Source of the DNA: Myxococcota bacterium
GTDB lineage: Bacteria; Myxococcota_A; SURF-8
Direction: 5' to 3'
Length of the DNA: 64,000 nucleotides
NCBI GenBank assembly: GCA_965140415.1
Contig: OZ223209.1
Span: 1,152,001-1,216,000 of the forward strand
Shown in pieces: positions 501-64,000 of the stretch. The translations under genes and the position numbers were made by a program. Within the stretch, counting starts at the first letter, position 1. The number at the start of each line of letters is the position of its first letter. The notes below the pieces were generated by a model that saw only the letters and a program-made list of their open reading frames with translations, was not told the origin of the DNA and searched no databases.

Positions 501-502
501 GA

Positions 503-45806: not shown

Positions 45807-46015
45807 AATAAATAGCGATACGAATTTTGCGAAAGGGAGAAAATGAGATGCCAAGAGTTTGCCAGTGTCTAGCACACCGAAATTGCAAAAACACTCCGAT
45901 TCTGGAAAGACCGCCGCCGTCGGTTTCAGCAACGTTGGAGATCGGCGAGAAATCAGGTCATTCAGGTTTTTTGCGGACAGAGTCCGAAACCAGAAACTAC
46001 GAAAAGGAAAAAGCA

Positions 46016-48928
46016 ATGCTAACCACTTTTAAGTATTTCATGAAGGCCTTGATGATATTATTCATCATGAACGGCTGTAGCGGCCCCGAGATTCCCTTGG
46101 GCGAAGGCGACACCGACACGACATCAGGTGAAGAGCCGACCAGTGAAACCTCGGGAACATTTCTTCTTACATCGACTCTTGGAAACCTTCCCGAGGGTTT
46201 TACCGGGAACGGGACAGTTACGGCGTTCGATGAAGAAGGCATCGCCAGTCAATATGCGTGTCAGGTCGAAAATCGCGACAACGATTCCGGCAAGACCGTG
46301 TTTTCCTGCGGTCCATACAAGATCGAAGCGATACCACACCGCTTTATTTTGGAGGTCTTCGACGCCACCACACAACAGCTTTTCTGCCAGGCGAAAAGCG
46401 ATTTCGTTTCCATCGCTGCCGGTACGATTACTCCTGTGGATCTGGGACTCTGTGTGGGGGTAGAAATCGAGGGCGAGGACGGAGTAGGCGACGCCTACGT
46501 TGTCTTGTATTCCGAATACGAACCGATCTACCTCAGAACGCCGCCACTGAACACGGTCGTCAAAGAACTGACCCGTGAGTTCAGTGTGAGCACTCCCCTA
46601 CAGGAAGGCATCGAAACCTATCACTTCATCCTGGATCGACTTTCCATTCCCGGCATTGGTGAGGAAGTCGAAATCGAAACGTTGGGAAGCTGTGAAACAA
46701 CAGAGCCGACCTGTACGTTCTCAGACATCCCCTCCAAGAGCGTTTTCAATATTACTGGCTTTGTCAGCGCCCTTGGCGTTGATGGTCCAAGCATGACCGT
46801 TATGTTGGACACCAACGACTGGAGAGAAGACCCTGTCGACGGTGATGTCACTGACGGTGATGTCGTTGACGGTGATGTCACTGACGGTGATGTTATTGAC
46901 GGTGATGTTACTGACGGTGATGTCGTTGATGGTGATGTCGTTGATGGTGATGTCACTGATGGTGATGTCACTGATGGTGATGAAGAACTACCCACCGGAG
47001 GTTCAACCATCAACTTCATCGGCGCAATCGACAAACCTTTTGAAAATACATATGCCACACGATATTTTGCTCAAGAAACTGATCGTGGCGTACATTTAGG
47101 CCAGGATCTCCGTGCAGCAGTAGGAACCCAGGTTAGAGCCGGATGTACCGGCCCCGTCTCGTTTAGTAGCGATACGGTATCCGGTTACGGTTCCACTAGT
47201 GGTGCAGACGGAAGCGTCACCTTACAGAACTGCACCGACATCGACATAGCTGCGACGATGAATTACGGGCACTGCACATCAACTGGGATTGCGGAGGTTG
47301 GTGACGTTATACAACGTGGCGATGTTATTTGTGAAGTCGCAGAATTCTATGGGCCTGATGGTGTGACATCATGGGCTCATCTACATGAGGCTTGCCGCAT
47401 CGGACACTACGGAGTTGACCCGGGCAACTACCTGATCGGTTATGCCAACGGTGCAGAGCAGCCGATCTCCAATGGCGGAAGCTGGGTTGACCCGGCTACG
47501 CTCGATCCGGAGAACCTCGATCCCTGTGTGGGTCTCGACGACGGCACCTACTGTGGTGACAACGGCTTGTACAACTACGCGGGTGATGCCGAGGATCTGG
47601 TTGAATGTAAAGAGGGTGTCATTGTGGATTTGACGGCCTGTACCCATGGTTGCGTTCGTAACGAGCAGGGTTACAACGACACCTGCAACCAGGGTTCCTC
47701 TGAAACCTGCGATGGCGTGGACAACGACTTCGACGGTCTGGTTGATGAGGATTACGGCATTGGCACCGCTTGCCAGGGCAAAGGCGAGTGCGGCACCGGC
47801 ACGATGGAATGTGACGGTCCCTATGCGTCCCGTTGCTCCACCGATATCGGTGGTAGCGAGTATGCTGGTAGCAATGACGTTTGCAACAACCTCGACGACG
47901 ATTGCGACGGCAATACCGACGAGGATTACAGCATCGGCTCCAGCTGCCTGGGTAAAGGCGAGTGCGGCTGGGGTGTGTTCGAGTGCAACGGGATCTATGC
48001 CAATCGTTGCTCGACCGATGCGGGCGGCAGTGAGTACGATGGGTCGACGGAAGTCTGCGACGGTCTGGATAACGACTGCGACGGCTCCGTGGACGAGGGC
48101 TATAGCATCGGTTCCAGCTGCAACGGAGTCGGGGCTTGCGGCTATGGCGAATACGAGTGTAACGGCCTGTACGGCACGCGTTGCTCGACCGATGCGGGCG
48201 GGAGCGAGTACGACGGCTCGACCGAGCTCTGCAACAACCTCGACGACGATTGCGATGGCAGCACCGACGAGGGCTATAGCATCGGTTCCAGCTGCAACGG
48301 AGTCGGGGCTTGCGGCTACGGTGAGTACGAGTGTAACGGCCTGTACAACAAACGCTGTTCCACCGACATAGGAGGCAGCGATTATGACGGCACGACGGAA
48401 GTCTGCGACGGTCTGGACAACGACTGCGACGGCTCCGTGGACGAGGGCAGCTCGCTTTGCGGCACCGATCAGATCTGCCAGGCCGGTTCCTGCGTCGATT
48501 CTTACTACATCACTGCGGATTACGAAGACGACTACTCCCCCTCCGGCGTTTGTGACACGGCTGTCAGCCGTGCCCTTTACCGGATGCAAGTCATCTATAT
48601 CGATGGCAATTTTGTTACCCTACGAGTGAAGAAATGCACCGATACGGCCCAGAGCTCGGGACGCATTTACTGGATCGTGACAGGCGAGCACATCTATCCT
48701 CAGGAGTCACTGATCAACGCGTATGTGCCTCGGGTTTCCGGAACCTGGAGCAGCACGATCACCAAGACGATCTACAATGTTCCGGTGTGGCCGGATGTAG
48801 CCAGTCTTCGTGAAGCTGCCTGCGGAGAAACGAAGCGCTTGTTCGTTATCACCGATGGCTCCGACACGGTAGGGGAGCGGATTTGGTACCAGTACCGCAG
48901 CGTGCAATTCACCAAGGTTTGCCGATAA
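46016..48928 (+). CDS. Large lipoprotein with DGD repeats, an M23 peptidase domain and Cys/Asp-rich (MopE-like) repeats
   Basis: Lipobox MNGC. M23 motifs HLGQD, YGH and HLH. ExCDGxDNDCDGxVDEG repeats. AAGGA RBS before ATG 46016. Confidence 0.82.
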   Translation: MLTTFKYFMKALMILFIMNGCSGPEIPLGEGDTDTTSGEEPTSETSGTFLLTSTLGNLPEGFTGNGTVTAFDEEGIASQYACQVENRDNDSGKTVFSCGPYKIEAIPHRFILEVFDATTQQLFCQAKSDFVSIAAGTITPVDLGLCVGVEIEGEDGVGDAYVVLYSEYEPIYLRTPPLNTVVKELTREFSVSTPLQEGIETYHFILDRLSIPGIGEEVEIETLGSCETTEPTCTFSDIPSKSVFNITGFVSALGVDGPSMTVMLDTNDWREDPVDGDVTDGDVVDGDVTDGDVIDGDVTDGDVVDGDVVDGDVTDGDVTDGDEELPTGGSTINFIGAIDKPFENTYATRYFAQETDRGVHLGQDLRAAVGTQVRAGCTGPVSFSSDTVSGYGSTSGADGSVTLQNCTDIDIAATMNYGHCTSTGIAEVGDVIQRGDVICEVAEFYGPDGVTSWAHLHEACRIGHYGVDPGNYLIGYANGAEQPISNGGSWVDPATLDPENLDPCVGLDDGTYCGDNGLYNYAGDAEDLVECKEGVIVDLTACTHGCVRNEQGYNDTCNQGSSETCDGVDNDFDGLVDEDYGIGTACQGKGECGTGTMECDGPYASRCSTDIGGSEYAGSNDVCNNLDDDCDGNTDEDYSIGSSCLGKGECGWGVFECNGIYANRCSTDAGGSEYDGSTEVCDGLDNDCDGSVDEGYSIGSSCNGVGACGYGEYECNGLYGTRCSTDAGGSEYDGSTELCNNLDDDCDGSTDEGYSIGSSCNGVGACGYGEYECNGLYNKRCSTDIGGSDYDGTTEVCDGLDNDCDGSVDEGSSLCGTDQICQAGSCVDSYYITADYEDDYSPSGVCDTAVSRALYRMQVIYIDGNFVTLRVKKCTDTAQSSGRIYWIVTGEHIYPQESLINAYVPRVSGTWSSTITKTIYNVPVWPDVASLREAACGETKRLFVITDGSDTVGERIWYQYRSVQFTKVCR
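46838..46981 (+). repeat. 15-nt coding tandem repeat, (DGDV[T/V/I]) x9 plus a final DGD
   Basis: GAYGGTGATGTYRYT units read directly from the sequence. Confidence 0.95.
47702..48448 (+). repeat. 174-nt (58-aa) coding repeats, four full copies and one partial
   Basis: Example: GAGGGCTATAGCATCGGTTCCAGCTGCAACGG at 48095 and 48269. Confidence 0.9.
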
Positions 48929-49677: not shown

Positions 49678-52326
49678 TCAAAGTTCGTTTCCTACGTCCA
49701 AGGAGGTGGAAGGGAAAGGAGGCTTGGAAGTCGATGTTTTTTCGTAGTTTTTTTCAAGCTCCCATTTTATTATCCCCTTGGCCCGTCTGCGCGAAAGGAA
49801 ATAATGGCACTCATATTTGTGATCGGCATCGGGGGCTAAATCTTGAACGGGAATGTCAGTCGGGGCCGTTTTAAAAAGTTGCGAAAAACGCCGGGTGCGG
49901 GCCTGAGCGGTGCGCTTTCCAAGCTCGCGGACAAAAAGCTGGTGATCGTCCGCGAGGGCGACGAGATCCCTTGCGCACAACGGTGCGCCGTCGTTGTGCG
50001 CCAGCCAGGCCGAGAAAAAAAGCTTGAAATCTGGGGACGTGACGGGAGAAGACGCAAGAAAACCGGAGATGCCATGCATGGCCAAGAGCCCGTCGAGCGC
50101 GTGCGCCCAAGTTTCGAAAGTGGAAAGGTGGGCCTTTCCTCTGGGCTGACCTGCAAGAAACCAGGCGCGGACCAATAACAGCGCAGCACGCAGGCCCTCC
50201 AAACGGTGACGGCGCAAAAATTGCAGCAGATCCGCATGGCGAAAGCTCGCGGGGTCTTGTCTTCTTCGGCGTTGAAGGCGAACACGTACGAGGCGACGGG
50301 CCAGCTCGGGCGTCGTACTAAGATGATTGGCCGTCAGACACCAGGAGCTGCGATTCGTAAGCTTGATTATTTCGGAGTGGCCCAGGCGGCGGGAACACCA
50401 CTCGGTGGAAGAAATCACGCTGGCCAGCGAGGGAGAATCAAGCAGGAAGGACAGGTTGTCGAAACAGATGAAGTCCGCCGAATCACACAACAAAGCTGTG
50501 ATCTGTTTGCGGCGCTCGCTTTCATCCTTGTCCAGCACGGTCATCGTCGGGCCATGACCCAATAAAATCGTGCCGATCGCCTGCACCAATAGGGTTTTAC
50601 CAACGCCGGGCTGTGGAGCTTCGATACTGAACAGCGGGGTTGGGGCGTGGAGCGCATCGAGCAAAAAAGGTTGCAGTAGCAGCGCGAACGCATGAGCCCG
50701 GTCACTTGCGGAGACGAAGGGGAAATCATGAAACAGATGTTCATCGAACCACTGCACGGCGCGGCGGCACTCTTCCGGAGATGGATTCTCGGGGATAGCG
50801 GGCAGTTCCTCATCGAGCGAGACGTACAAGCGGCTGTCGGCGTAGTAACCGGAACGCGCCAGCAGACGACCTTCCGAATCGAAACAGGGACGGCGGCGGA
50901 CTCCAAGAAGTTCCGGCCATTTCGGATCGGGATTTACACAGAGATCTCGGGCCAATTCGCGATTCGGGCGGGATGGGCGCCGGTTTGGATTTTCACCGCG
51001 CACCCAATCCGCCGCCCGAACCAGCAGTCCGAAGGACAAAGCCTCCGTCAGGGGTTTCAGTCGGCCTCCTTCTTGCTCGGAATCGAGCAGGAGGGATTGG
51101 CCATCCAACCTGAACAGGCGCGGCGGAGAACCATAGGCTTTTCGTAGCGCACGATGCGTGTCCAATAGGACATCGCGAAACTGGCGCCCGTCTACTCGGA
51201 TTTCAGGGTGCTTTTCATCCTTTTCAAGATCCATTGGCGGTGGGCAACCGGCCAGGTTGCCCACACGTTGCACGGCGTCTTTAAAATCCTGCGCCTGCCC
51301 GGTGCGTTGCATGAACGAAAAGACGGAAACCGTTTCGCCGGAACGAAACGAATGAAACGAGCCGCGTTCGGCGGGACCGCTACCATCCGCGACGCTGGCG
51401 GAAGGACGACGATCGCCGCTGGGACTGGCCGGGTCTCGGCATTCCAGCCAGCCGCCGGAGCTGGCTCTTCCGGTCAGCCACGGGCCATACACATCTTCCA
51501 ATGGGAGGCGGTCGAGGGCGTTTTGCCGCCAGTCCGGGAAAGAGTCGTACAGGGCTTGCAAATCGAAAGCGGGGGAGGGCAGCTCCGGCGAGGAAATGAC
51601 AGGCGGTTCTAGTTCCTCTTTCACCTCGGTTGTTTGGTTTAGCCGATCGGGAGGGTTGGGGCGGAAGTCGGCGGGTGAAACCGGCCTGAAGCCCTGCTCG
51701 GTAGGGCAGAAAAACCGGCAGGCGCCGGGCTGCGCACCCTGCCAACCCGGCAGCCAAACGAAATTTCCCAGTCCCTGTCGCGTTGTCAGCGCAGCCTGTT
51801 TGGGAAAAATTTCCACCCGGCGGCGCGTTGCCTCATCCAGCTTTGAGAGCAGCTTCTTAGCGAGACGGCGCAATCGATGCGCCTCTACAGGCTCGCTAAA
51901 GAGCAACCACACATGCCAGCCATGGCCCGAAGCGGAGCGCTCCGCCAGGGGAAATAGATGCAAGGTTTCCGTCGCGGCAAAAACCTGTTTCATCGTCGCG
52001 TCGGGATCGGGCAGGGCATCGGCGTGATCCGGTCCCCCATCGAAGTCCAGGCAAAGCCAGCGACTTCTACCCAGCGCGTCCGGTGCATAGCTGCCCAGCC
52101 GAAAGCGACCGAAGAGACGGCGGGTTTTCCCGTGCAGGGTGCAACCGGCCAGCGGCGCCTGCGGGCCGAGCAGATGCGCCGTGAGCAAGGCGTCCAGATC
52201 GTCGGGCCGAACCGGGTGTGGGCGGCCCCACGGCATGGCGGCGGCCACGATATCCGTGCGATTGAAAAAGAAATCTTTCAACAACGTCAGCCAGTCGATC
52301 ACAGCAGCAGGGGTCAAGTCGGTCAC
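49678..52326 (-). CDS. Second AEP (TOTE-like) primase fused to a P-loop helicase-like domain
   Basis: FFNRTD, WLCLDFDG, ERSASGHGWHVW and VEIFPKQ motifs, then APQPGVGKT (Walker A), ICFDN and LTAN. GGAGG RBS before the GTG start. Confidence 0.8.
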   Translation of the reverse strand: MTDLTPAAVIDWLTLLKDFFFNRTDIVAAAMPWGRPHPVRPDDLDALLTAHLLGPQAPLAGCTLHGKTRRLFGRFRLGSYAPDALGRSRWLCLDFDGGPDHADALPDPDATMKQVFAATETLHLFPLAERSASGHGWHVWLLFSEPVEAHRLRRLAKKLLSKLDEATRRRVEIFPKQAALTTRQGLGNFVWLPGWQGAQPGACRFFCPTEQGFRPVSPADFRPNPPDRLNQTTEVKEELEPPVISSPELPSPAFDLQALYDSFPDWRQNALDRLPLEDVYGPWLTGRASSGGWLECRDPASPSGDRRPSASVADGSGPAERGSFHSFRSGETVSVFSFMQRTGQAQDFKDAVQRVGNLAGCPPPMDLEKDEKHPEIRVDGRQFRDVLLDTHRALRKAYGSPPRLFRLDGQSLLLDSEQEGGRLKPLTEALSFGLLVRAADWVRGENPNRRPSRPNRELARDLCVNPDPKWPELLGVRRRPCFDSEGRLLARSGYYADSRLYVSLDEELPAIPENPSPEECRRAVQWFDEHLFHDFPFVSASDRAHAFALLLQPFLLDALHAPTPLFSIEAPQPGVGKTLLVQAIGTILLGHGPTMTVLDKDESERRKQITALLCDSADFICFDNLSFLLDSPSLASVISSTEWCSRRLGHSEIIKLTNRSSWCLTANHLSTTPELARRLVRVRLQRRRRQDPASFRHADLLQFLRRHRLEGLRAALLLVRAWFLAGQPRGKAHLSTFETWAHALDGLLAMHGISGFLASSPVTSPDFKLFFSAWLAHNDGAPLCARDLVALADDHQLFVRELGKRTAQARTRRFSQLFKTAPTDIPVQDLAPDADHKYECHYFLSRRRAKGIIKWELEKNYEKTSTSKPPFPSTSLDVGNEL

Positions 52327-52931
52327 GGGAAATCCTCCTAAATGCTTCAGGGCGGAAATCGCCCGAAAAAAACATCGGAGGAAAACGTTTTTTCAAAGGG
52401 ACGATTTTTTTATACCAAGAAATCCGGGGGGGCTGCAAGAGACGTAGAGCAGCAAAAAGCAGCGCAGCGGAGCATGAGGGTTGGCACAGCAGCGGCAGGC
52501 AGCGGGAAGGACAACAGGGACGGCAACAAGCGACCCGAGAGGCTGGAAGGATGTAAAAAAAGAAAGTGCGGATAGTATTCTTATAGTATTTTTTTCTCCC
52601 GGAAAATTGCGCGAAGGGAAGAAAAAAAACGTTGTTTTCGTCAAAACCAACCTAAGCTAATGAAATAAAAAAAGATATTAGGGGTGTAATAAAAAAAAGT
52701 GTTCCCGCCTTTCTCCCTTCATACCCCCTGAAAATCGTTTCGGAAGTAAAACTGGTTTTGAGTTAAAAACTTTTACATGATGTAAGGAATGTGAAAATTT
52801 ATTGCTCCATTTTTTTCATTCATTAGTTTGACTTTTAGAAGGTCTTGATTAGAATGGCCAGTCATGGTTTAAGTACAACCAAATCCCTCATTACCAAAAA
52901 TTCGTGGCGGACAACAGTAGAGGTATGCTTT

Positions 52932-55900
52932 ATGGCTCCAAGCAATGATCTCAATCGATGTAGGCTTAAAGATTACGGTCTGATGATGTCGTTTCATGCC
53001 ACACCGCCGGATCGAATCTTTAGCATTTTCGACGAACTCAAAGATCATTACGCCCGCTTTCGCGATCCCTTGTTTCTGACCTGTAAAGAATATGAGGAAA
53101 AGAGCAAGCGCCCGAGAACGAAGGATTTCAAAGAGAAGAAACGGGAGTTTGAAAAGTTTTTCTATCATCCGTTTTTCGCGTTTCTGTTCGGTCCCTTCGA
53201 CGCCATGAGCATGGCGCTGGTGGATCATTATGAGCTATCGATGTTTCTGCATCCTCCTTCTTCCTCTTCCCTCCAGGTCGCCTTTCACGCCGTTCCGCAG
53301 AATTTTCCTTCGAAGAGTCAGATAAAGGTGTTTTCAGAACAATGTCCTGCTCTTGCAGGTTTCGACCCGCGACTTCGGGAAAAGCACATCACAGAAACCG
53401 TAAAAAGCGTGTTCGTTTCGCCGCTGTCCATGTTCGGCAACGAGTTGTTCCCGACACAGGATTTTACGGAGCATTTGATCTCGAAATTACAGGCTCATGG
53501 GTTATTGAAAAAGGAACTTCCTGGGTTACCGGAGAAATATCCTCTCAATAAGCAAGTTCATTACATGCTGCATACCGTTTTTAAGCCCATACCCTACCCG
53601 GAATTGAGTAAACCCAAGCCCCCTTCCGATTCGCAATTAGGGAAGCTTTTCGACTTGATGCAGAGCGCCGATTTTATTGAGCCTGGTAGTTCTCTTGCGC
53701 TTTATAAAGATGTTGTCACTGCGGTCTATGTCAAATCCATTGACGATCTGAAAAACGAAAAACGCAACGAGCCGATCCACCGGCAGCGCAAACGCCTTGC
53801 CAACGAAATGCCGCTGATCGCCATTGTCAAGATCAAACTCAACGCCGTGCTGCTGCTTACCTTTGGGGCCTCGCTGGTACGTCGAATCAACCGGGCCATG
53901 CGTGCGTTGTTGCATACTTACCGCGACGAGGACGATGGGAGCCTCAGGTACAACCCTTTGGAATGCGATCTTAAAGTAAAAGTCACGGCGCTGGAGCCCA
54001 TGGGCTGGAGCGAGCTGAGCTTATGCTTAATATCAAATAATTACGAGGACTTGGCCGCGGCCATCCTTCGCATCCGCGAGGCAAAGCTCTCTGATTTGAT
54101 CATCGAACCCGATCCCGAAGCAACTGGGAAGGAAGCAGAAAACGAAAGCATCCTGAAACAGGCGGCCTATCAGTTAAAAGAACCCTGGTTCCCAACGGAT
54201 CTCAGCAGTTTCCCACTGTTGCGGCTCTTCCACGGCGACCGCAACAAGGCAGAAATCTTGTTTTCGACCTTCCTGCTTGAAGCTCTTGCCAACCCCGCCT
54301 TTGCCGATTTGGCTTCCGGTGGCTTCCGGCATGAATATCCCCATGTTTATGCGCGCCGCACCACGTCGGATGAGCCCTTGTATCAGGACGCACCGCTCGG
54401 CTTGTATTTTCGGGAGCTGTGCCATCTTTTCGGTGTACCCGATAAAGATGGAAAACATGATAATCCCAACTTGAGGGGCGAAATTGAAAGCGCCATAAAG
54501 GACTATCTGGCCCAGTCGAAAACCAATCCACCCAAGTCGCTGCTGAGTTTTTTGCGCCCGGTGTTTGAACGACCTACTATGGATGATCCACCTTCCCCCC
54601 ATGATTGGGAGGACAACGAGAAAAAAAATTTAGAACGAGAACAACGGAATTACCTGGGGCGCTGTTATCACGCGGTGCTCTCCCGCATCCTGGCGCACTT
54701 CGACGAATTGCCTCCCTTTCTTGCAAACGAGACCTGGAAACAGCATCTGGCTGGATACGATAAGACCGTCGAGGATATCATCAAAGAGATGCACCTGGCG
54801 GTGGATAGCAACGCGAAAGACATCAACCTGATCAGCATTACGCATTCCTTCTTCGGCGTGGGCCGTACATTTATGGAAACCTTGCGAGATTTCTGTTTTC
54901 AGCGTGGCGACTTCGAAGATTTGAATAGTAAGGACGAAGCGAAACGCGCGCAGGCGGAGCAAGCGAAAACGGAACTGCTTGCCTCGTTGGATAATATCAA
55001 CGGGTTTGTGCTGCCTTCGATCGGGTTCAATGCCCGCCCGGGTAAACTGAATGCTCTTTATAATAAACTAAATGAGTTGGCTTATGATCTGATCAATATT
55101 AATGCGGCCACCGATGAAAACTCCTCCTTTAACGATAAACCCCACTTGCGCCGATTGCTCAATGACCTGAAAAACCAGCCCATTCCAGTTCCGGAAGACT
55201 TTGGTGAGGGGAAGTACATTCTGGTTGAACCGGGCAAAACGGATATGAATTTGCAGTTTTCGTGGTTTAAGGAAAGCTCCAAAGACTGGATCTTCAATCC
55301 TCGTGCTCCAATTCCGACAAGGCTTTTCCTCTTGCTATTGATGGCGTCAATGACGACGCTAGCAAAACAGGAAGACAGCGAGGCCTCGCCCGCCTCCGTT
55401 CCCAAGAATTACCGCGCCTTCGCGTTGGAAATCTATCGGCAGCGCAGCTCGCTGGGGGTGTTGGTTGAGACCAAAAAAACCCCGGTCACGTTCATGGACC
55501 CAAAAAAACGGGCAGACGAGACGAAAAACGTGATGAACCCCAATTTTCAGTTATTGGAGCTTTTGCGACTGGGCGAGTTGTACGATCTGTATTTAAAAAG
55601 CAACATCCGCAAACTGGGAATTCCAAAGCATTTAAAAAACGAGTTGCGCCTGATGTTGGGCGTCTACGATTCGATCATTACCGATCCGATTCAGTTCGAC
55701 GCCATTTTGGAGCTTGGCCCCTCTTTGGTGCGTTCGCTAAAATACATTCAGGAATGTATGGATACGAAAACGCCCGGGAAGAAGATCCTACTCGAATCCA
55801 AAAAGCAGGAAAAGCTTATTGAAGATATCGAATTCAGCTTGAGACGTTTGCGCGACGGCTTTTCCAATCGCTATAGCAGTTCCTTCGCTCTAACGGAACT

Positions 55901-57596
55901 TTCCGATGTCACGCTTGAAGTAAAGGGCCCGATTCAGCATCTCCTTACAAGCCTCGATGGAATCCTTGCTTCGGCGCTACAAGATCTGCCTAACTTCGTA
56001 GATCACGCCGATCCGCTGGACTGGCCGATGCGTTCCGGTTTTGCCGTGATCGGCGAAAAGACCTCTGTAACTACCTTGCTGCCAATAGGGTCTATTACTC
56101 GCCAAAATATGGTGGAAATGTATCAGGCAGAGCACGTGATGACCTTGTATCACGAAGCGCTACATACCTTGCTTGTCATGTCCGAGTTCGACCCCTTACG
56201 CGAATTGCTTAAGCATTACAGCAACGGCACCTTCGGCTCCAATATCGAATATGAGAATAGGACACCGATTTTGGAAGAGATCATGTCGGATTGTTTGTTG
56301 GCGGAGAGGGTGTTTTTCCCTGAGCTGGGCGATCTCCTGAGCGACCCGAACGAAGAACAGAAAAATGATCGCGCCAACCGTTTCAAAGAAAGCAATCGTC
56401 ACTTTTTACGCTGGCTTTCGTTCAATTTCCTGCAAATCGGTACGTCTTCCGATCCGACCCTGCAAGAGTTGGAAAAGGATTTTTATCGCCGTGCCCGTTT
56501 CTTTGCCCGTTTGATTTTCGCCATGAATCTCGACGAAGAAGACCAGTTGGACCTCGCCGATAAGGACTATTTCAAGACCTGGGAAGAACGTTTTCATAGC
56601 CCGATGCGCATGGCAAACTATTTCCTCCCGAAACTTTCCGGTTTCAAGGATGAGTTGAGTGCGCACATTCCGCCCAGTGCCCTCTCAGAAGAGACTCTGA
56701 AGAACAAGAATGGTGTGGGTTGGAAGTTTTGGGTTCTGTTGCATCAGAAGTTCCAACACCTGGTTCTTGCGCCGGAAGGCTTGTTGAAACTCGAATACGA
56801 GCATCAGGTCCAGCTATTCGAGAAATTAAAAGAGAATTTCGACATCGAACAGGATATTGCATCTCAGGACGAGCATTTAAGAAAGAAATTCGAAACTCGG
56901 CTGGAAAAGATCAAGTGTCTGTTGCAAAATTTTGTGAACAAGGCGCACGACGATCTACCTCCCCCCATGCTGCATTTCCTATTGACGATGAAGTATTTGC
57001 TATGGGGATTTCGGAGCTACGACACCCACGAAAACCTGCCTTTGGTCGGTGCGGATAGATGGGAAACCCTTAGCAAAGAAGATTTTATCGATTACCGCCA
57101 AAATCGCCTGGCCGCCTTCACTCTCGATCCGATCCGTGACCCCGACTATCTTGGTCCCCTTGACGGCTCTCCCTCCATAAAGGATATCGATTGTCAATTT
57201 AGTCGAGGATATGGTTTCATCAGTAAGGTGTTCTCTCAATACCTGGAACATCTCTTCGATCCACCTATAAATAAAGGTGAAAATAAAGATTGGCCGCGAA
57301 CCCCTTTCAAGCGTTTGGGTCGCGCGGAAACAGACTGCTCCCCTGAATTTGAGGAAGGCGATCCGCCCCTGTTGGCCGATCCGGCTGGCGGCTCTTTTAC
57401 GCCTGACTTCGAGTATCGCCGCCTTTATTTTGGCGCTGGCGAGGTTTGCATGTTTTCGCTTTGGGATTATGGTTTATTTGCTCGCCGCCGGAAATTGTTG
57501 AACCTTTTATTGCGCCCCTTCGTTAAAGCTCAATCAGGAGATTACAAGGAGTTTTTGGGAGAAGACAAAAAGGTCGAGGAGGTGAGGGAAGTATAA
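52932..57596 (+). CDS. Very large uncharacterised protein (about 1554 aa) with an HExxH...E zinc-metallopeptidase-like motif
   Basis: Long uninterrupted ORF. LYHEALH (HEALH at 56151-56165) and EEIMSD about 37 aa later. No signal peptide. Start chosen from the GAGGT RBS. Confidence 0.7.
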   Translation: MAPSNDLNRCRLKDYGLMMSFHATPPDRIFSIFDELKDHYARFRDPLFLTCKEYEEKSKRPRTKDFKEKKREFEKFFYHPFFAFLFGPFDAMSMALVDHYELSMFLHPPSSSSLQVAFHAVPQNFPSKSQIKVFSEQCPALAGFDPRLREKHITETVKSVFVSPLSMFGNELFPTQDFTEHLISKLQAHGLLKKELPGLPEKYPLNKQVHYMLHTVFKPIPYPELSKPKPPSDSQLGKLFDLMQSADFIEPGSSLALYKDVVTAVYVKSIDDLKNEKRNEPIHRQRKRLANEMPLIAIVKIKLNAVLLLTFGASLVRRINRAMRALLHTYRDEDDGSLRYNPLECDLKVKVTALEPMGWSELSLCLISNNYEDLAAAILRIREAKLSDLIIEPDPEATGKEAENESILKQAAYQLKEPWFPTDLSSFPLLRLFHGDRNKAEILFSTFLLEALANPAFADLASGGFRHEYPHVYARRTTSDEPLYQDAPLGLYFRELCHLFGVPDKDGKHDNPNLRGEIESAIKDYLAQSKTNPPKSLLSFLRPVFERPTMDDPPSPHDWEDNEKKNLEREQRNYLGRCYHAVLSRILAHFDELPPFLANETWKQHLAGYDKTVEDIIKEMHLAVDSNAKDINLISITHSFFGVGRTFMETLRDFCFQRGDFEDLNSKDEAKRAQAEQAKTELLASLDNINGFVLPSIGFNARPGKLNALYNKLNELAYDLININAATDENSSFNDKPHLRRLLNDLKNQPIPVPEDFGEGKYILVEPGKTDMNLQFSWFKESSKDWIFNPRAPIPTRLFLLLLMASMTTLAKQEDSEASPASVPKNYRAFALEIYRQRSSLGVLVETKKTPVTFMDPKKRADETKNVMNPNFQLLELLRLGELYDLYLKSNIRKLGIPKHLKNELRLMLGVYDSIITDPIQFDAILELGPSLVRSLKYIQECMDTKTPGKKILLESKKQEKLIEDIEFSLRRLRDGFSNRYSSSFALTELSDVTLEVKGPIQHLLTSLDGILASALQDLPNFVDHADPLDWPMRSGFAVIGEKTSVTTLLPIGSITRQNMVEMYQAEHVMTLYHEALHTLLVMSEFDPLRELLKHYSNGTFGSNIEYENRTPILEEIMSDCLLAERVFFPELGDLLSDPNEEQKNDRANRFKESNRHFLRWLSFNFLQIGTSSDPTLQELEKDFYRRARFFARLIFAMNLDEEDQLDLADKDYFKTWEERFHSPMRMANYFLPKLSGFKDELSAHIPPSALSEETLKNKNGVGWKFWVLLHQKFQHLVLAPEGLLKLEYEHQVQLFEKLKENFDIEQDIASQDEHLRKKFETRLEKIKCLLQNFVNKAHDDLPPPMLHFLLTMKYLLWGFRSYDTHENLPLVGADRWETLSKEDFIDYRQNRLAAFTLDPIRDPDYLGPLDGSPSIKDIDCQFSRGYGFISKVFSQYLEHLFDPPINKGENKDWPRTPFKRLGRAETDCSPEFEEGDPPLLADPAGGSFTPDFEYRRLYFGAGEVCMFSLWDYGLFARRRKLLNLLLRPFVKAQSGDYKEFLGEDKKVEEVREV

Positions 57597-60500
57597 TGCC
57601 TGTCGACTTCACCCAACTATTAGCTGATTTCAAGCCCGAATTTGTTGAAACCTTGGATCGTCTTCGATCCCAGGAAGAACAACCCATTTTTTCCAAATTC
57701 AATGTCAATAAAACCAAACTGGACTCCCACTACGATACTGGGACCGAAGAATACACACAGAAAAAGAAGCAACTGGAAGATACAAAAGAAAAGGAAATGA
57801 AAAGTGTTGAAAAAGATTACGATCTCTTGCTCCGCGAATACGATCGAATCTCCTCTCTTTCCTACCGACAGGAATCGCATGCAAGCGAGCAGATTATATT
57901 TCCCTATAAACTCCTCATTTTATCGTATCACTTGATGCTTGACTACGAGTTGAATAGGACCGTCTTCGGCCTCCCAATGCGCGATTTTCTCGGAAGAAGA
58001 GCCCGAGCAATTCTATGGCGGATTCTTAATCCGCCTCTGGGTATGACCTCGATTCCGCAGCGCCTGTATTTTTCCTGTTGGTGGCTTATTTTTTACAGTT
58101 ACGCCTCTTCCGGTAATGCCCTGGGACTGTTTCAAGCCCGCCGAATTATGCTTAAGACTCTATTGCTTTACTCTAAAACAGTGGGCGTCTCGCGTCATAC
58201 CGTTAACGTATTTTGCTGCATAGTGGATCTAAATCTAGTCATGCAAGCAAGAAAAGATCAGAAACTCAAAAAGCCGATTTCCCACACTGATCCTCATTAT
58301 GATAAATTAAACAGCTTAGTCAACCTCCTTAGCGAAGATCCCTCCTCTAAATACCTGCAACGCGAACTTTCTACTCTTATTTCTGAAGCGAATGACCTAT
58401 TGTTTTCTTTTAAGTTAGAAAATCCATCTCAGGATTTCGAAGTATTTTCCATCGATATCGATTTACAAACCTGTCTCAATAGTCTGAGATTATTGGATAT
58501 CAAGGCTATACCTCTTTATCAGGATCTCTACTACGAATTACAATCTTTTTCCAAAATCGGCAGTAATGACAACCTCTCAATTTTCGAGAATATGTTCAGT
58601 CGTTATGCCAATGAACTTCTTGCGGATAAATTCGCTCCTTGCAACTTTATCCAAAAACTCGGCGCAAGGAAAATTATCGAATCCTTGTTAAGAGGACATT
58701 TCGATGAAACCTGCCCACTCAATGCTAGATCGATGCGCAGCAGATTTTCTCGGACTAAGATTCCGCAGGAAAGTCCACAAACACCTTTACAAGTCGTGGT
58801 GATAAACTCCCACACTAACATACACTCCTATCCCTCTTCATTTCTCACCAACTTATTCTTATATATTGAAGAAAAATACGAAGACTACGATGCTTCGAAT
58901 ATTGACACCTACCTCCGCTATCTGGTTGCGGAAATCGCCGAATCTTGCCTGAGATATGAATTGGAACTTGCGGCGGAGTTGATGACGCTGGCCCGCCTTC
59001 ATTTTATCTACCTGGAAAAGAGCAAAAAGAACATTCCTTCCGGTTTTAAACATCTGGGTAAATTTCTCGTAAAAATTGCTCCTGGCAAAGATAAGCGGTC
59101 CAACAGCGAGGTCAAAGCGAAGTTTCAGGAATACTTGAGTTCCCTTTCCTGGCCGACTGGAATGCGCCATTTCCTGCTTTCCTTGTTTCCTTCGAGTGGC
59201 GTCGGTGCGGATCACCTGGCCCTTTTAAACCAACCTCGAGGTCTTACGGATTCGGACGACGAAATTCGCATTCACTGTCTTCGTCGTTGGGGTTCGGATA
59301 CATCCCTGTTTACTTGGAACCGCGAAAAGGAACAGAACTGGGGGGGCGGATTCTTTATTTATGCCGGCAAGGACAGAGGAGTTGCGGTTGATCCCGGTCT
59401 GGATTTTCTTGATCTATTTTATATGTACACACCCTATCGCTTTTCGAACATCTCCAGCTACCTGATTACTCATACCCATATCGATCATGCCGGAGAATTC
59501 GAGAAAATGTTCTCGATCAGTGTGAAATATGCAGAACTGGCTAACAATATCCTAAAACCGTTGCAGATCATTTCCTCCAGGGATCGTGGCCATTATATAG
59601 AATGGATGAGTTGGACTAAAGAGGAGTGCCGACGCTGGCAGAGGATCAGAAAACTGAAGAACCCTAGTTGTTGTCCCATTATCGAAAAAAAGGATCAGGG
59701 GTTGCCTGAGTTGTTCAAGCAACGCTGTACAAGTGACAATGAAATTTGTCCTCGCCAGTTTCCTTTTATAAACAAATTGGTTGTAGTAAAAAAGACGATC
59801 GACGAAACAAGTGCAACCGAAGATACAGTGAGTATTCCTCTTACAGACACGAGTCAGATCGATCGTAATCAATGGGCAAAAGTGGTTCCCTTTAAGGCCG
59901 AGCATTATGAATGGCCACTTTCTAAACTCTTTCCAAAGTCTCATAAATACGACAGCAACTCATCCTATCCGAAGAAACGTCGCTCGTATGAGTTTCCTCC
60001 TAAATACTGGACCCCAGATACACCCTCGGATTACAGTGTTGGCTATAAACTAAGCATTAACCCCCCCGCCTCGCAAATGGATTCCTGGTACAATATCCTA
60101 ATTACTGGCGATTTCAGCTACAATCAGGTCAGTGAATTTAAGAAATCAGTGAATTCGGGGCGATTGAATCTCACCGATACGCATGTGATGATTGCCAACA
60201 TCAGTTCGGTCAAATCCAGCGAGTTGGATGAACACAACGGCGATCGTAATGGGGGCAACCATCTGGGACTTTGCGGGTTGATTGACATTGTAGAAATTGT
60301 GAAACCGAAGGTGCTGGTGATCACAGAAATAAATCGGGAACAGTCATTCAAAGATCTTCGCTGCAATCTGCTTGATCTGATCAAGTATCGTCTTAATATT
60401 AAGATGGGGGACGAAGCTCCACCGGTTTTCTTGAGTGAGCTTGGTTTGACCTTCATTTTGCGCGATGGAAAAATCCTGGTGGAATGCGCCTGCTCCTCAC

Positions 60501-60847
60501 TCGCTGATGAGGCACGCGAAATCTATCCTAACCCAGTTACAGTTGAGCAAGTTAAATTCAACTCTTCCGAGCATTACAACAAAAATGGTGAGCTCGCTGT
60601 TTTGTGTGAAAAATGCAAGCCTCTATTCTCAACACCAGAGGACCAGCCACCTCAAGGTGGTGTAACAATCACTCCTCCTCCTCCTCCGGCAACTTCCCGT
60701 TCAATGGACATTCCCGCGGCCACCAGACAAAATAAAAAATGGGGTTCATCTCCTTCCTCCCCCACTCTCCCAGAAACAAACATAGAGGTTCCCTCTCAAA
60801 TTAACTTGGAAGATAAAAAAGATTCTGATCCAAAAACTGTGACCTGA
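57596..60847 (+). CDS. MBL-fold metallo-hydrolase with a long helical N-terminal region
   Basis: GGGFFI...AVDPG, ITHTHIDH (HxHxDH), AEH, ITGDF and NHLG motifs. TAATG overlap with the upstream gene. Confidence 0.82.
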   Translation: MPVDFTQLLADFKPEFVETLDRLRSQEEQPIFSKFNVNKTKLDSHYDTGTEEYTQKKKQLEDTKEKEMKSVEKDYDLLLREYDRISSLSYRQESHASEQIIFPYKLLILSYHLMLDYELNRTVFGLPMRDFLGRRARAILWRILNPPLGMTSIPQRLYFSCWWLIFYSYASSGNALGLFQARRIMLKTLLLYSKTVGVSRHTVNVFCCIVDLNLVMQARKDQKLKKPISHTDPHYDKLNSLVNLLSEDPSSKYLQRELSTLISEANDLLFSFKLENPSQDFEVFSIDIDLQTCLNSLRLLDIKAIPLYQDLYYELQSFSKIGSNDNLSIFENMFSRYANELLADKFAPCNFIQKLGARKIIESLLRGHFDETCPLNARSMRSRFSRTKIPQESPQTPLQVVVINSHTNIHSYPSSFLTNLFLYIEEKYEDYDASNIDTYLRYLVAEIAESCLRYELELAAELMTLARLHFIYLEKSKKNIPSGFKHLGKFLVKIAPGKDKRSNSEVKAKFQEYLSSLSWPTGMRHFLLSLFPSSGVGADHLALLNQPRGLTDSDDEIRIHCLRRWGSDTSLFTWNREKEQNWGGGFFIYAGKDRGVAVDPGLDFLDLFYMYTPYRFSNISSYLITHTHIDHAGEFEKMFSISVKYAELANNILKPLQIISSRDRGHYIEWMSWTKEECRRWQRIRKLKNPSCCPIIEKKDQGLPELFKQRCTSDNEICPRQFPFINKLVVVKKTIDETSATEDTVSIPLTDTSQIDRNQWAKVVPFKAEHYEWPLSKLFPKSHKYDSNSSYPKKRRSYEFPPKYWTPDTPSDYSVGYKLSINPPASQMDSWYNILITGDFSYNQVSEFKKSVNSGRLNLTDTHVMIANISSVKSSELDEHNGDRNGGNHLGLCGLIDIVEIVKPKVLVITEINREQSFKDLRCNLLDLIKYRLNIKMGDEAPPVFLSELGLTFILRDGKILVECACSSLADEAREIYPNPVTVEQVKFNSSEHYNKNGELAVLCEKCKPLFSTPEDQPPQGGVTITPPPPPATSRSMDIPAATRQNKKWGSSPSSPTLPETNIEVPSQINLEDKKDSDPKTVT

Positions 60848-60848
60848 C

Positions 60849-60921
60849 TGACCTGCCCCCCTAACGAGAATCCAGTAATGATGCTTTGCTCCCCTGACCT
60901 GACCCCGATAGTGACGCCAGT
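60849..60921. mobile_element. Two tandem orphan IS3-family-like terminal repeats
   Basis: TGACCTGCCCCCCTAACGAGAATCCAGT (60849-60876) and TGACCTGACCCCGATAGTGACGCCAGT (60895-60921). No matching transposase is attached. Confidence 0.5.
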
Positions 60922-60971
60922 CATTGTGGTAGGCCCGGATCAGCCGATTGACTTTGGAGACCCCAGATATC

Positions 60972-62375
60972 CGTGCGTCCCGAAAACTCCGTCCAAGCTG
61001 AAATCACTTGCCTTTTCGTGATCATTCCGTAAAGCTGTTTTGCATGAAACTCTTGCTGATTATCACGATGTTGGCCGCCCTGAACCTCTTCCTATTCGGT
61101 TACGTCCACCGGAAACTGATTCTGCTCGTCGCCTTGCAACGTCAACAGCTCGTTGTTTACAAGCGGAAGATCAAACGACCGAGGCTCAAAGAACGGGACC
61201 GTCAATTCTGGATACTTCTTTCAAAGATCTGGTCGGAGTGGAAAGAGCACCTGGTCATTGTCAAACCGGAAACGGTCATCCTATGGCGTCGCCGGAAATT
61301 CAAGGACTACTGGCGGAAACTGTCAAGAGCAGACAGGAAAATAGGACGACCGCCCATCACCAAGGAACACATCGCCTTCATCAAACAGATTTCCGCTGAC
61401 CACCCAGGCTACAGTGGCAAACGCATCGCCGGGATGTTGAACACGTTGTTTGGTGTAAATCACGCCCCAAGCACCGTAGATCGCTACCGAGTGAAGCTGA
61501 CGAAACCGCCTCTTGGAAATCAGCAGTGGAGCACCTTTTTAAAAAACCATGCTTCCGCTATCTGGTCCTTTGATTTCTGTGTCCAGTTCACCTTCTTCTT
61601 TGCCCGAGTTTATATCCTGATCATCATCGAATTGGAAAGTCGACGGATTGTCCATCTCGCTGTGACACTGCACCCAACCCTGGCCTGGCTCAAGCAACAG
61701 ATCCGCAACGCCACCTGGGATAATTGCCCGAAGTTTCTGATCCATGACAACGACGGCATCTTCGGCCAACTGGGAAAGCCAGTGGCCGTTCAATTCAATG
61801 GCAAATCGGTTTCCTGCCGCTCGTCGTTGGATTATTGGCTGGTCACCATCATGGGCATCCGGGGAATTCCGACCCCGTTCCAAGCGCCCAATGCCAACGC
61901 CCATTGCGAGCGCGTCGTGGGCACGCTACGCCGGGAGTGCCTGGAGCACATGCTCTTTCTCAACGAATGGCATCTGATGCGGGTGCTGCGGGAATACAAA
62001 GACTATTACAACCACGAGCGTTACCATCAAGGCATCAAGCGGATTCCAAACCCAGCCGATGACATTGCCGATAGCCGGAAACTTGAGGGCAAAGGCAAGC
62101 TGGTTCCCAAGCCGATCCTGAACGGACTGCTCCACAGCTATCGGCTGGCGGCTTGACGTTTTAGCTGGTGATCTTAGAATGGGTCTCGGATTGAAACCTA
62201 TGGACAGGTCCATCCAATACTCGCCATTTACACGTTTCAATGAACAATTCGGTCATAGTGGGAGGGGAGTTCATGTCCCGCGCCGCCGAATTCCTTCTCC
62301 TCCAGACTCGCAAAGTGTTTTCTCATCGGGCGATCATCGCCAAATCATGTCCGGATGGAGTTTTCGGGTTGCACG
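60972..62375 (+). mobile_element. Insertion sequence with 23-bp terminal inverted repeats
   Basis: CGTGCGTCCCGAAAACTCCGTCC (60972-60994) versus GGATGGAGTTTTCGGGTTGCACG (62353-62375), 20/23 complementary. No target duplication visible. Confidence 0.85.
61044..62156 (+). CDS. DDE transposase (integrase core domain)
   Basis: VKPETVILW, WSFDF, LIHDNDGIF, PNANAHCERVVGTLRRECL and YYNHERYHQG motifs. Confidence 0.92.
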   Translation: MKLLLIITMLAALNLFLFGYVHRKLILLVALQRQQLVVYKRKIKRPRLKERDRQFWILLSKIWSEWKEHLVIVKPETVILWRRRKFKDYWRKLSRADRKIGRPPITKEHIAFIKQISADHPGYSGKRIAGMLNTLFGVNHAPSTVDRYRVKLTKPPLGNQQWSTFLKNHASAIWSFDFCVQFTFFFARVYILIIIELESRRIVHLAVTLHPTLAWLKQQIRNATWDNCPKFLIHDNDGIFGQLGKPVAVQFNGKSVSCRSSLDYWLVTIMGIRGIPTPFQAPNANAHCERVVGTLRRECLEHMLFLNEWHLMRVLREYKDYYNHERYHQGIKRIPNPADDIADSRKLEGKGKLVPKPILNGLLHSYRLAA

Positions 62376-62627: not shown

Positions 62628-63038
62628 CTAGCAAGGGAGGTTGGCAATTACATCAATTGATACCGAACTAGAATTGGTTTCAATTTGAAGACGCTTGGTT
62701 AAAGCTCTCGCAAACCTGCTCATTGGCCATGGAACTGCAAATACAAAAACAGAGTTTCCACATGTGGAACCATATTTTAAGAAAGCTCTGATTTGTTCCA
62801 CCGAATGAGGTCTTTCAACGTCCCCTATTGTTTTGGCTTCACCAATAACAGTTAAGCCATTTGGTGCTGTTGCAGTGAAAACGTCTGGAACGTACCCGTT
62901 AATTTTAGGAGGTTTACTTGAAACGTTCATCGTAGGGTGATCGATTAATAAAAACCCTTTGTCTCCATTCAAATACGTCTTGGTAACCCAAGCCACTAAA
63001 TCTTCCACAAGTGTAACATGAGCCGCTGATTCTGCCAT
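62628..63038 (-). CDS. Small PD-(D/E)xK nuclease-like protein
   Basis: YVPDVF...TVIGEAKT motif. TAATG-coupled to the ParB-like gene. Confidence 0.6.
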   Translation of the reverse strand: MAESAAHVTLVEDLVAWVTKTYLNGDKGFLLIDHPTMNVSSKPPKINGYVPDVFTATAPNGLTVIGEAKTIGDVERPHSVEQIRAFLKYGSTCGNSVFVFAVPWPMSRFARALTKRLQIETNSSSVSIDVIANLPC

Positions 63039-64000
63039 TATTCTTCCGAATCAAAGCCGATATCTTTACAGAGGTCGCTAAGGGCATCTCTGGCATCACA
63101 AACCACGGAGACTTCTGGTGTGTCTTTCCTACTCCGAAGTTTCTGAAGATCAATATATTGAATTCCACTTATTCGCTTGCTAAGCTCTCTTGCCAGTTGC
63201 TCCAGTGTTGCATCCTGCAGGGCAGATTCTGGATTTGGCACATCCAAAGCCTTTATTGCTTCTTGGGCGCCATGTTTTAGAAAAATGGCCTTGGCTTTTT
63301 CATTCTGTAAGATTTGGGGTAGTTTACGAACAGTATTTAAAGGGAATATTTTTTGAGTATTGACCCATTCTGCGAAATCCTTTTTTGTGTAATTTGCTAA
63401 AAGAAGTGCATTGACTACTCGCGGACGCTGAAGCTCGACAAATGCACTAAAACGCGAGGGATCAAAATCTTGGTCGCTATCAAGCAGGGGTCTGTAGTTA
63501 GACTCCATGTCGTTGTAAGCTTCAATATAATTTTGTACTTCCCGTTTATCTCCACCACAAAAGTCCACTAGTTGAGAAAAAGTAAGATGCTCATTGTTTC
63601 TAAGAAGATTCAGATATTTCGCTTTTGAATAGGGATCCCATTCTCGTGTCCCAACCAAGTGAGCCTGCAATCGTATCGCATCAATTGAATCTGTGGGTAG
63701 CTCATCATGGACCATAGATGGGATCTTGTCCCAAGGTCCTTTGGGATCACTCGCTTTCAGCTCTCGATAAATGTGCGTCCTTGTGTTCCCTTCGATTACA
63801 ACAAGCTTTCCATCGCTCTCTCTATTCACAATAATTGGGTGGATAATTCCACAATTTGTTTGAATTGACTGTTTTAAACTTTGGTAGCTTGGACCTCCCA
63901 CATCATCTTGCCCTCCACCTGAGCGCAAGGCCAATTCAATCTGTGCGGAAGTTGGTGCTCCTTCATATATTTCAAGCCATTTGGCGATCCTTGGATTCTG
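63038..64000 (-). CDS. ParB/Srx N-terminal-domain protein; 5' end outside the window
   Basis: The frame stays open to 64000 (QNPRIAKW...). GIIHPIIV...VVIEGNTR and WDPYSKAKY motifs. Confidence 0.8.
   Translation of the reverse strand, partial: QNPRIAKWLEIYEGAPTSAQIELALRSGGGQDDVGGPSYQSLKQSIQTNCGIIHPIIVNRESDGKLVVIEGNTRTHIYRELKASDPKGPWDKIPSMVHDELPTDSIDAIRLQAHLVGTREWDPYSKAKYLNLLRNNEHLTFSQLVDFCGGDKREVQNYIEAYNDMESNYRPLLDSDQDFDPSRFSAFVELQRPRVVNALLLANYTKKDFAEWVNTQKIFPLNTVRKLPQILQNEKAKAIFLKHGAQEAIKALDVPNPESALQDATLEQLARELSKRISGIQYIDLQKLRSRKDTPEVSVVCDARDALSDLCKDIGFDSEE

Follow-up and report, generated by a model that had tools for sequence, protein, structure and literature searches.

A very large gluzincin-like candidate protein coupled to a divergent metallo-β-lactamase-like protein in a Myxococcota genome: a possible conflict module with interchangeable partners

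The window considered here is a stretch of 64,000 nucleotides from the genome of a Myxococcota bacterium (assembly GCA_965140415.1, contig OZ223209.1, positions 1,152,001 to 1,216,000 of the forward strand), and the subject of this work is a pair of very large genes found in it, called gene 1 (protein P0001) and gene 2 (protein P0002). An original prediction, made from the DNA letters, had proposed that both constitute an undescribed two-gene defence or conflict system, in which a sensor-protease would activate a nuclease of the metallo-β-lactamase (MBL) fold. The present analysis places gene 1 in an undescribed protein family with a predicted zincin-like site and varying partner genes, and the pair is tentatively read as a conflict module of which gene 2 would be the local partner. 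The two genes and the parts recognised in them are the following (positions in the window):

52932-57596, + strand: gene 1 (P0001), a very large open reading frame (ORF) of 1554 amino acids (aa) from ATG, predicted to be cytoplasmic
52962..54980, + strand: gene 1 residues 11-683, two predicted ferredoxin-like domains, arranged as in chlorite dismutase, HemQ and DyP and interrupted by insertions specific to P0001
53187-53201, + strand: FGPFD hairpin, residues 86-90 (FGPFDA at 86), first ferredoxin-like domain
54003-54014, + strand: GWSE hairpin, residues 358-361 (MGWSEL at 357), second ferredoxin-like domain
55005..55517, + strand: residues 692-862, third predicted ferredoxin-like domain, holding the PGKTD hairpin 767-771
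55230-55244, + strand: PGKTD hairpin, residues 767-771 (PGKTDM at 767), third ferredoxin-like domain
55995..56315, + strand: residues 1022-1128, predicted gluzincin-like unit (helix, three strands, HExxH helix, later ExxxD helix)
56151..56165, + strand: HEALH (H1074, E1075, H1078), residues 1074-1078
56274..56291, + strand: EEIMSD, the distal acidic motif, from residue 1115 (E1116-x-x-x-D1120)
57309..57509, + strand: C-terminal block, residues 1460-1526 (DPxGGxF...RRxYF...SLWD), conserved across the family
57596-60847, + strand: gene 2 (P0002), 1083 aa, an orphan translationally coupled to gene 1
59387..59512, + strand: gene 2 residues 598-639, MBL motif 1 (VDPG) and motif 2 (HTHIDH, 59471-59488), from profile matches
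60485..60616, + strand: CxC...CxxC cluster of gene 2 (C964, C966, C1004, C1007), from motif positions

The two reading frames are joined as originally described: within the junction sequence GTATAATGCC, the TAA stop of gene 1 (57594-57596) and the ATG of gene 2 (57596-57598) overlap by one base (TAATG), and a Shine-Dalgarno-like stretch, GGAGGTGA, called strong, is found about 12 nt before the second ATG, inside the end of gene 1. The reading frame of gene 1 is already open from a TTG at 52845, upstream of the ATG at 52932; the latter is probably where translation begins, since P0001 and the related proteins P0004 and P0006 align with one another at residue 1, and a GAGG is located 9 nt upstream of it. 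The G+C content is 49.0% in gene 1 and 43.8% in gene 2, the genome, a single 5.98-Mb contig, having 52.4%. The motifs that had been quoted for both proteins were all found in place, and the statement that neither carries a signal peptide agrees with a Kyte-Doolittle scan, which gave no hydrophobic segment at either N-terminus. The pair had not been recognised as a named system either, and the PADLOC check gave no match for it; Pfam and NCBIfam likewise returned nothing above threshold for the two proteins. Furthermore, tblastn of both against plasmid and phage collections gave no match, and sequence searches of the PDB with gene 1, gene 2 and the family profile gave chance-level rows only.

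Judged from its sequence, gene 1 is an expanded member of an undescribed family that is listed in no domain library. An exhaustive phmmer search with residues 355-1554 against 1.84 billion representatives yielded 55 relatives at E<=1e-3, including four with an E below 1e-30. In local phmmer comparisons, four collinear blocks (residues 5-146, 289-407, 886-1099 and 1460-1526) connect gene 1 with most relatives, and the length of the relatives is about 900-1200 aa versus 1554 aa for gene 1, which is longer because of P0001-specific insertions. No match to gene 1 was obtained in Pfam, PADLOC, NCBIfam or PHROGs, none of 25 family members scanned reached a Pfam cut-off, and a word-index search of 5.8 billion proteins with gene 1 returned a single match (8% coverage, E 3.3e-4) and no relative. 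The clusters given by the Atlas for gene 1 are unnamed (score 0.78, low recognition). Conservation was counted in a 67-sequence family alignment, in which the C-terminal block stands out with R1496 in 64/67 sequences, D1483 in 60/67, and G1486 and G1487 in 61/67 each.

Ten members that were looked up all derive from metagenomes or metagenome-assembled genomes, one of them being a 'hypothetical protein' of Candidatus Lernaella stagnicola. As regards the distribution, the family was found in none of 40 close relatives of the window genome, in 2 of 400 genomes sampled elsewhere in its phylum, in none of 400 other genomes of the phylum of a second holder (G405), and in 26 of 301 genomes of Saprospiraceae, the family of a third (G406). 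No match was found in plasmid, phage and viral collections, viral contigs being searched with the alignment of the six closest sequences as well as with that of the HExxN group described below; the former alignment recovered only the contig of P0004 among metagenome contigs, and nothing among genome contigs. In 8 of the 21 Saprospiraceae matches (L046, L048-L052, L054 and L055), one to three in-frame stops are listed within the matched range, and in L055 the family gene is split in two. Pseudogenes may be among these copies; alternatively, the matches may overrun the gene ends.

Gluzincins of the thermolysin and neprilysin type combine an HExxH motif with a later ExxxD, the Glu of which is the third zinc ligand. 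For gene 1, an HExxH with a distal Glu had been claimed, and both turned out to be real features of the family, within limits: the full HExxH is present in only 25/67 sequences, and the most conserved distal residue is D1120 (65/67). E1075 is found in 67/67 sequences and H1074 in 60/67, and H1074, E1075 and H1078 are kept without exception in the six closest sequences. At position 1078, 25/67 sequences have His and 32/67 have Asn, the full motif being HExxN in 27/67 and some other variant in 15/67. At position 1116, an acidic residue (E/D) is found in 23 of the 25 HExxH sequences versus 3 of the 42 sequences lacking His at 1078; among the 32 sequences with Asn1078, 24 have Tyr there. The subfamily of gene 1 is thereby characterised by HExxH...[E/D]xxxD, and the other group by HExxN/YxxxD.

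Since positions 1078 and 1116 change together, they would act as one site; the joint change may also reflect few evolutionary events, because both groups are clades. The distal Glu of the original claim is best read as E1116. A single HExxH in gene 1 is by itself unremarkable, 0.095 being expected from composition, and a second one (HEYPH, 467) was discounted, as it sits in a P0001-only insertion. Gene 1 and its family gave no sequence match to peptidase families in Pfam or in solved structures. On this pattern of conservation, gene 1 is predicted to keep a gluzincin-type site, with metal binding and protease activity.

The architecture of the family was approached by means of an AlphaFold2 (AF2) model of P0004, a compact relative of 1072 aa, made with the 67-sequence alignment. 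P0004 has 27% identity to gene 1 in that alignment and 38% over the stretches matched in the exhaustive search, and the model reached a predicted local distance difference test (pLDDT) of 82.5 and a predicted template modelling score (pTM) of 0.89. In fold searches, the N-terminal fold of P0004 is that of heme and monooxygenase enzymes. The three segments with Gly followed by an acidic residue, which had been pointed out for gene 1, are nearly invariant in the family, and in the model each of them forms the β2-β3 hairpin turn of one ferredoxin-like domain. The G-x-x-D/E hairpin represents a three-fold internal repeat reminiscent of palm-type domains; neither a cyclase nor a polymerase is listed among the fold-search matches of the model. 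A heme-enzyme reading of the fold was set aside: no His is found among the invariant or near-invariant columns of the N-terminal half of the family, so that a heme site of the Cld/DyP type is unlikely.

The C-terminal half of P0004 is helical except for the strands 642-646, 653-657 and 660-665, after which come a helix with HEAFH (678-687) and a helix with EEIAAD (750-765), residues 630-765 having a pLDDT of 88-95. In the model, the order of these secondary-structure elements fits a zincin.

The neighbours of the gene 1 relatives provide the link with conflict systems. Thirteen family loci were taken from genome contigs, all of them of the HExxN group, and in these the family gene has no co-directional partner; TIR, NACHT/STAND, patatin and SLATT genes recur near it, the last three types in 3/13 loci. 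In Saprospiraceae, a TIR gene is located tail-to-tail downstream of the family gene in 8 of 21 full-length loci, as detected with a local TIR hidden Markov model (HMM), and in a further 5/21 loci a gene of about 312 aa at the same place is homologous to the TIR partners (hhalign 97%, E 1e-10). A TIR or TIR-like partner is thus present in 13/21 loci (L041-L045, L048-L050, L052-L054, L056 and L058), a count that overstates the independent events, because the loci come from related genomes. Five Saprospiraceae genomes hold 3-7 TIR_2 genes each, one per genome being the neighbour of the family gene, and three loci (L007, L008 and L010) have no neighbour in common other than the TIR gene. The TIR-like association in Saprospiraceae is strongly non-random, and the family gene and the TIR-like gene are candidates for a two-gene module in their own right. 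The family proteins with a TIR-like partner carry HExxN/YxxxD in place of HExxH/ExxxD. The defence or conflict context that had been proposed for the window is hence sustained as regards the relatives, which adjoin TIR-like genes far above chance; no TIR gene is found at the window pair.

Other partners are also found. At L069 (9813-14563, - strand), a family gene of 1054 aa with a KExxN-type motif (KESVN) overlaps by 4 nt a downstream gene, which encodes a calcineurin-like metallophosphoesterase of 529 aa with DxH, GD, GNHD and GHEH intact and about 250 unannotated C-terminal residues. P0004 (contig L016), the closest relative whose DNA was examined, overlaps by 23 nt the downstream gene at 4813-5151 (+ strand), of which 113 aa are on the contig, with no resemblance to gene 2 or to anything else compared; upstream of P0004, an IS110-type transposase gene occupies positions 2-694 (- strand). 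Next to the copy in G278 (HEVGH), the following ORF is unrelated to gene 2. All-against-all BLAST of the odd partner genes showed no similarity between them. A distant member is found in the phylum of the window (genome G060, L070 5938-9261, - strand; 1107 aa, HEHGH, local HMM E 1e-20); small ORFs upstream of this copy were dropped, as they look like wrong-frame artefacts of G+C-rich DNA. Taken together, the gene 1 family behaves like a constant component, the partners of which would vary by lineage: TIR-like, metallophosphoesterase and, in the window, MBL-type.

As far as gene 2 is concerned, the motifs quoted for it lie at residues 626 (HTHIDH), 690 (PSCCP), 964 (CAC) and 1004 (CEKC). The HxHxDH is unlikely to be there by chance, since 0.0007 occurrences are expected from composition, and jointly with the Asp strand before it, it is matched by MBL profiles of four different sources. 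The local HMM alignment spans residues 598-639, with VDPG...ITHTHIDH at 598-631, and several comparisons converge on this stretch: phrog_392, 'metal-dependent hydrolase', matches residues 592-638 (E 3.8e-4); hhalign places a profile, made from nine MBL proteins that this genome encodes, on residues 585-640 (probability 58.7%, E 9.5e-5, 55 columns); and the RNase Z and GntH models of NCBIfam match it at a sub-threshold E of about 0.1. Moreover, all clusters that the Atlas puts nearest to gene 2 belong to MBL, the best of them scoring 0.90. By eye, H770, D836 (ITGD) and H889 could be motifs 3-5. The distance from motif 2 to the candidate motif 4 is about 205 residues, the same-genome MBL consensus having under half of that, also by eye, and the extra segments (about 641-760 and 775-815, placed by eye) have a more polar composition than the remainder of gene 2. 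Gene 2 would then be a divergent MBL-like hydrolase with long polar insertions, and its Cys cluster is a possible four-Cys metal site.

The pair is surrounded in the window by the following features:

49678-52326, - strand: AEP primase gene, 882 aa, divergent upstream gene with a phage-type primase/polymerase C-terminal part (Pfam, PHROG)
52828..52855, + strand: sigma-70-like promoter match TTGACT-16-TAGAAT, 10/12 matches, 77 nt upstream of the gene 1 ATG
60894-60971, no strand assigned: 78-bp repeat directly 3' of gene 2, with two further genome copies of 97% and 94% identity (blastn)
60972-62250, no strand assigned: insertion sequence (IS) remnant, with an 84.6%-identical copy in the genome (blastn)
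61008-62156, no strand assigned: rve integrase ORF in the IS remnant (Pfam rve_3)
63038-64000, - strand, continuing in L036 at 3038-4063: ParB-like gene, 341 aa, adjoining the IS remnant

The promoter match is a weak lead, because nine such sites occur in the region versus a mean of 10.0 in shuffles. The primase gene and the IS scars that had been described at the flanks are both there; the upstream gene matches PF22548 AEP-TOTE (63.1 bits), phrog_10537 (E 7.6e-50) and phrog_19930, 'DNA polymerase/primase'. In three public DNA runs the region is contiguous, and assembly contigs break at the 78-bp/IS repeat. The upstream primase may belong simply to the replication genes of a mobile element. 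The ParB-like gene and the primase suggest a former plasmid- or phage-like element, and because a phage-type primase, a ParB-like gene and IS remnants adjoin the pair, the latter resembles the cargo of a mobile element that has since decayed, more than it does a section of a classical defence island. Further upstream, a sigma-54 activator of 1523 aa with a GAF domain (41050-45621, - strand) lies in a stretch of 42% G+C, versus 52% for the genome; the next gene (45827-48928) encodes a MopE-repeat/M23-like protein of 1033 aa with 54% G+C, and the composition of the 20-kb region around the activator is a mosaic.

The reading to which these data lead us is that of a conflict (defence-type) module with interchangeable partners, made up in this genome of a zincin and an MBL-like hydrolase; we regard it as possible, somewhat short of an even chance. 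The N-terminal domains of gene 1 would sense a signal or an invader, its zinc-protease centre would then process gene 2, and processing would turn a blocked hydrolase (a nuclease or phosphodiesterase) into its active form. The activation of an MBL nuclease by a sensor-protease, as originally put forward, is a mechanism established for other pairs in the accessible part of one report (PMC12799240), and its transfer to the window is by analogy.

Several results weigh against this reading, in addition to the relatedness of the Saprospiraceae loci and the analogical nature of the unlocking step. To begin with, the pairing of gene 1 and gene 2 was seen once, in a survey that left out the closest relatives, P0006 (MDP8225706.1, from a 229-kb contig), P0007 and others of the HExxH group (P0011, P0015, P0017, P0018, P0025, P0029, P0055 and P0056). 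The homologues are not co-located as had been anticipated: a homologue of gene 2 was found neither beside gene 1 relatives nor elsewhere in their genomes. No relative of gene 2 came from word-index searches of 5.8 billion proteins (with the whole protein, and with residues 560-1010 against shorter proteins), from 40 related genomes, from 10 family-holding genomes (one weak MBL match, E 0.024) or from 190 ORFs at 13 family loci, an orphan status that is provisional, because the exhaustive search was made for gene 1 only. The MBL core, which had been described as intact, amounts to the Asp and the HxHxDH segment, so that the MBL assignment of gene 2 extends over about 45 residues. Against a cut-off of 27 bits, Pfam Lactamase_B_2 (PF12706) gives residues 596-635 a score of 14.1 (E 0.035), or of 16.5 when the genome was scanned, the second half of the protein is not significant against MBL profiles (E 0.74), and a single-sequence AF2 model of residues 545-1020 was unusable (pLDDT 33.5).

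On the side of the gene 1 family, 42/67 members are without the full HExxH, including those with TIR or metallophosphoesterase partners, and therefore proteolysis cannot be the family-wide mode of action. The fold searches of P0004 gave N-terminal-domain matches throughout, so that the absence of a zincin there is uninformative, and 45 family members gave only isolated sub-threshold rows in PADLOC and NCBIfam, three of them in PADLOC. The TIR partners are convergent with the family gene, not co-directional. The G060 member lies near a gene of 677 aa whose C-terminal part is FabK/nitronate monooxygenase-like (by comparison with structures, E 3e-51), and the wider flanks of the window consist of housekeeping genes.

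Three other explanations have to be weighed. In the first, which we hold to be unlikely, gene 1 is itself the effector, that is, a zinc protease which, once triggered, attacks proteins of the host or the invader in the manner of Lit or of the caspase-like Thoeris effector, and gene 2 would be an accessory rather than its substrate, e.g. a phosphodiesterase removing a nucleotide signal. The intact HExxH...ExxxD of gene 1 and its closest relatives would suit such a role, and so would the TIR-like genes beside the relatives, as TIR signals activate the protease of type IV Thoeris (10.64898/2025.12.03.692087, accessible part); the Atlas clusters near gene 2 also include MBL phosphodiesterases of the Apyc1 type (0.86-0.90), which is a lead only. 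However, a TIR gene is absent from the vicinity of the pair and gene 2 itself contains no TIR, the only TIR_2 match of the genome being some 930 kb away; moreover, the TIR-partnered relatives are precisely those with a degenerate HExxH, and no sign of a ligand pocket was seen.

The patchy spread of the family (2/400 and 0/400 versus 26/301 genomes) fits mobile conflict genes, and this, together with the recurrent TIR-like partner and the NACHT, patatin and SLATT neighbours, argues against the second explanation, according to which the pair has nothing to do with defence and is cargo of the decayed element with some other role (metabolism, natural-product chemistry or element upkeep), the N-terminus of gene 1 binding or converting a small molecule. 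The missing conserved His of a Cld/DyP-type heme ligand points in the same direction. In its favour are the N-terminal fold, shared with heme and monooxygenase enzymes, the FabK/nitronate-monooxygenase-like neighbour in G060, the lack of PADLOC matches, and the primase, IS remnants, ParB-like gene and housekeeping flanks around the pair, and we consider it improbable. Finally, it is quite improbable that the coupling is incidental or decaying, gene 1 acting alone beside a fast-evolving orphan with an inactive MBL remnant: this would agree with the lack of detectable relatives of gene 2, its short MBL likeness, its low G+C (0.438, gene 1 0.490, genome 0.524) and the absence of a co-directional partner in most family members, but 1083 uninterrupted codons at 44% G+C, the Shine-Dalgarno-like stretch and the one-base overlap indicate a maintained, co-translated gene, two other family members (L016 and L069) also have overlapping downstream genes, and the orphan status is provisional.

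Returning to the module with interchangeable partners, its strongest form, namely that gene 1 stands for a new class of immune protein (three ferredoxin-like hairpin domains plus a zincin, with exchangeable partners) and that the window holds the first metalloprotease-gated MBL pro-hydrolase, is doubtful. Independently of the window pair, the family has a confident new architecture, i.e. a double barrel of the chlorite-dismutase type with a third ferredoxin-like domain and a predicted zincin-like module, and it can be tested directly as a candidate for a new immune module associated with TIR or with a hydrolase. Should the pair have no phenotype, the family definition would stay useful, with the caution that a neighbouring HExxH and HxHxDH do not make a system. 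In the literature, no description was found of the gene 1 family or of a zincin/MBL pair, supplements lying outside the scope of the search.

The comparison with known systems can begin with TOTE, the name of which stands for TPR, OB, TBP and Effector (PMC12458937, accessible part, citing Aravind, Iyer et al. 2022). The divergent upstream gene of the window carries Pfam AEP-TOTE; the system itself was rejected, no TPR, OB-fold or TBP match being found in any ORF between 49104 and 63934. The N-terminal part of the gene 1 family resembles the CDE superfamily (chlorite dismutase, HemQ/coproheme decarboxylase and DyP) in that two predicted ferredoxin-like domains form a CDE barrel. It differs from this superfamily and from dimeric α+β barrels in its identity of 8-12% and in the lack of a conserved His heme ligand; in addition, the fold accounts for just a portion of proteins that are 1000-1550 aa long, with conserved Gly/Asp/Glu in hairpin turns.

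With the gluzincins of the thermolysin and neprilysin type, the C-terminal part shares the predicted HExxH helix, the later ExxxD helix and a small sheet before the HExxH helix. On the other hand, some 37 residues separate HExxH from ExxxD in gene 1, a distance that reaches about 70 in relatives, over half of the family carries HExxN/YxxxD, and no peptidase family is matched in sequence.

Regarding Thoeris, TIR genes pair with many alternative effectors, and in type IV Thoeris a TIR signal switches on a protease effector (10.64898/2025.12.03.692087, accessible part). The likeness lies in the small TIR or TIR-like gene beside the Saprospiraceae relatives of gene 1 (13/21 loci, related genomes included); the window pair differs in having no TIR partner, and the pairs of the relatives are tail-to-tail, not one operon. 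The terms 'metallopeptidase', 'metalloprotease' and 'zincin' are absent from the accessible main text of this source, the supplementary tables of which could list one.

The closest parallel is that of the protease/MBL pro-nuclease pairs. According to the accessible part of PMC12799240, the MBL nucleases of Hachiman, AVAST, Lamassu, DRT and 'canu' systems are pro-enzymes blocked by two disordered insertions, and they are opened by partner proteases of the trypsin-like or caspase type; a trypsin-MBL module has also been described in a 2025 preprint (10.1101/2025.09.03.673762, accessible part). The word 'metalloprotease' is absent from the main texts of both sources and 'metallopeptidase' from that of PMC12799240, main texts being the scope of this check. 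The window pair departs from these systems in several respects. Its protease candidate is of the HExxH type, and at E<=1 Pfam matches it to neither trypsin nor caspase; its MBL-like gene lies downstream, unlike the nuclease gene of the trypsin pairs, which lies upstream in the parts of the sources available; gene 2 has no PADLOC match and no detectable MBL homology beyond motifs 1-2; and neither co-occurrence of gene 1 and gene 2 across genomes nor an attached Hachiman, STAND or Lamassu sensor was found. The points in common are the adjacency of the genes, likewise described, in the same accessible parts, for HamM with protease-HamA in Hachiman and for Avs1, Lamassu, DRT and canu, with both window genes on the same strand and overlapping by one base, and the long extra polar segments which, in an alignment by eye, gene 2 would carry inside its candidate fold. 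If the parallel holds, a zinc protease would be the third protease class to enter the protease/pro-nuclease principle, joined to an MBL lineage without known relatives, and it would support the idea that the proteolytic unlocking of effectors evolved many times.

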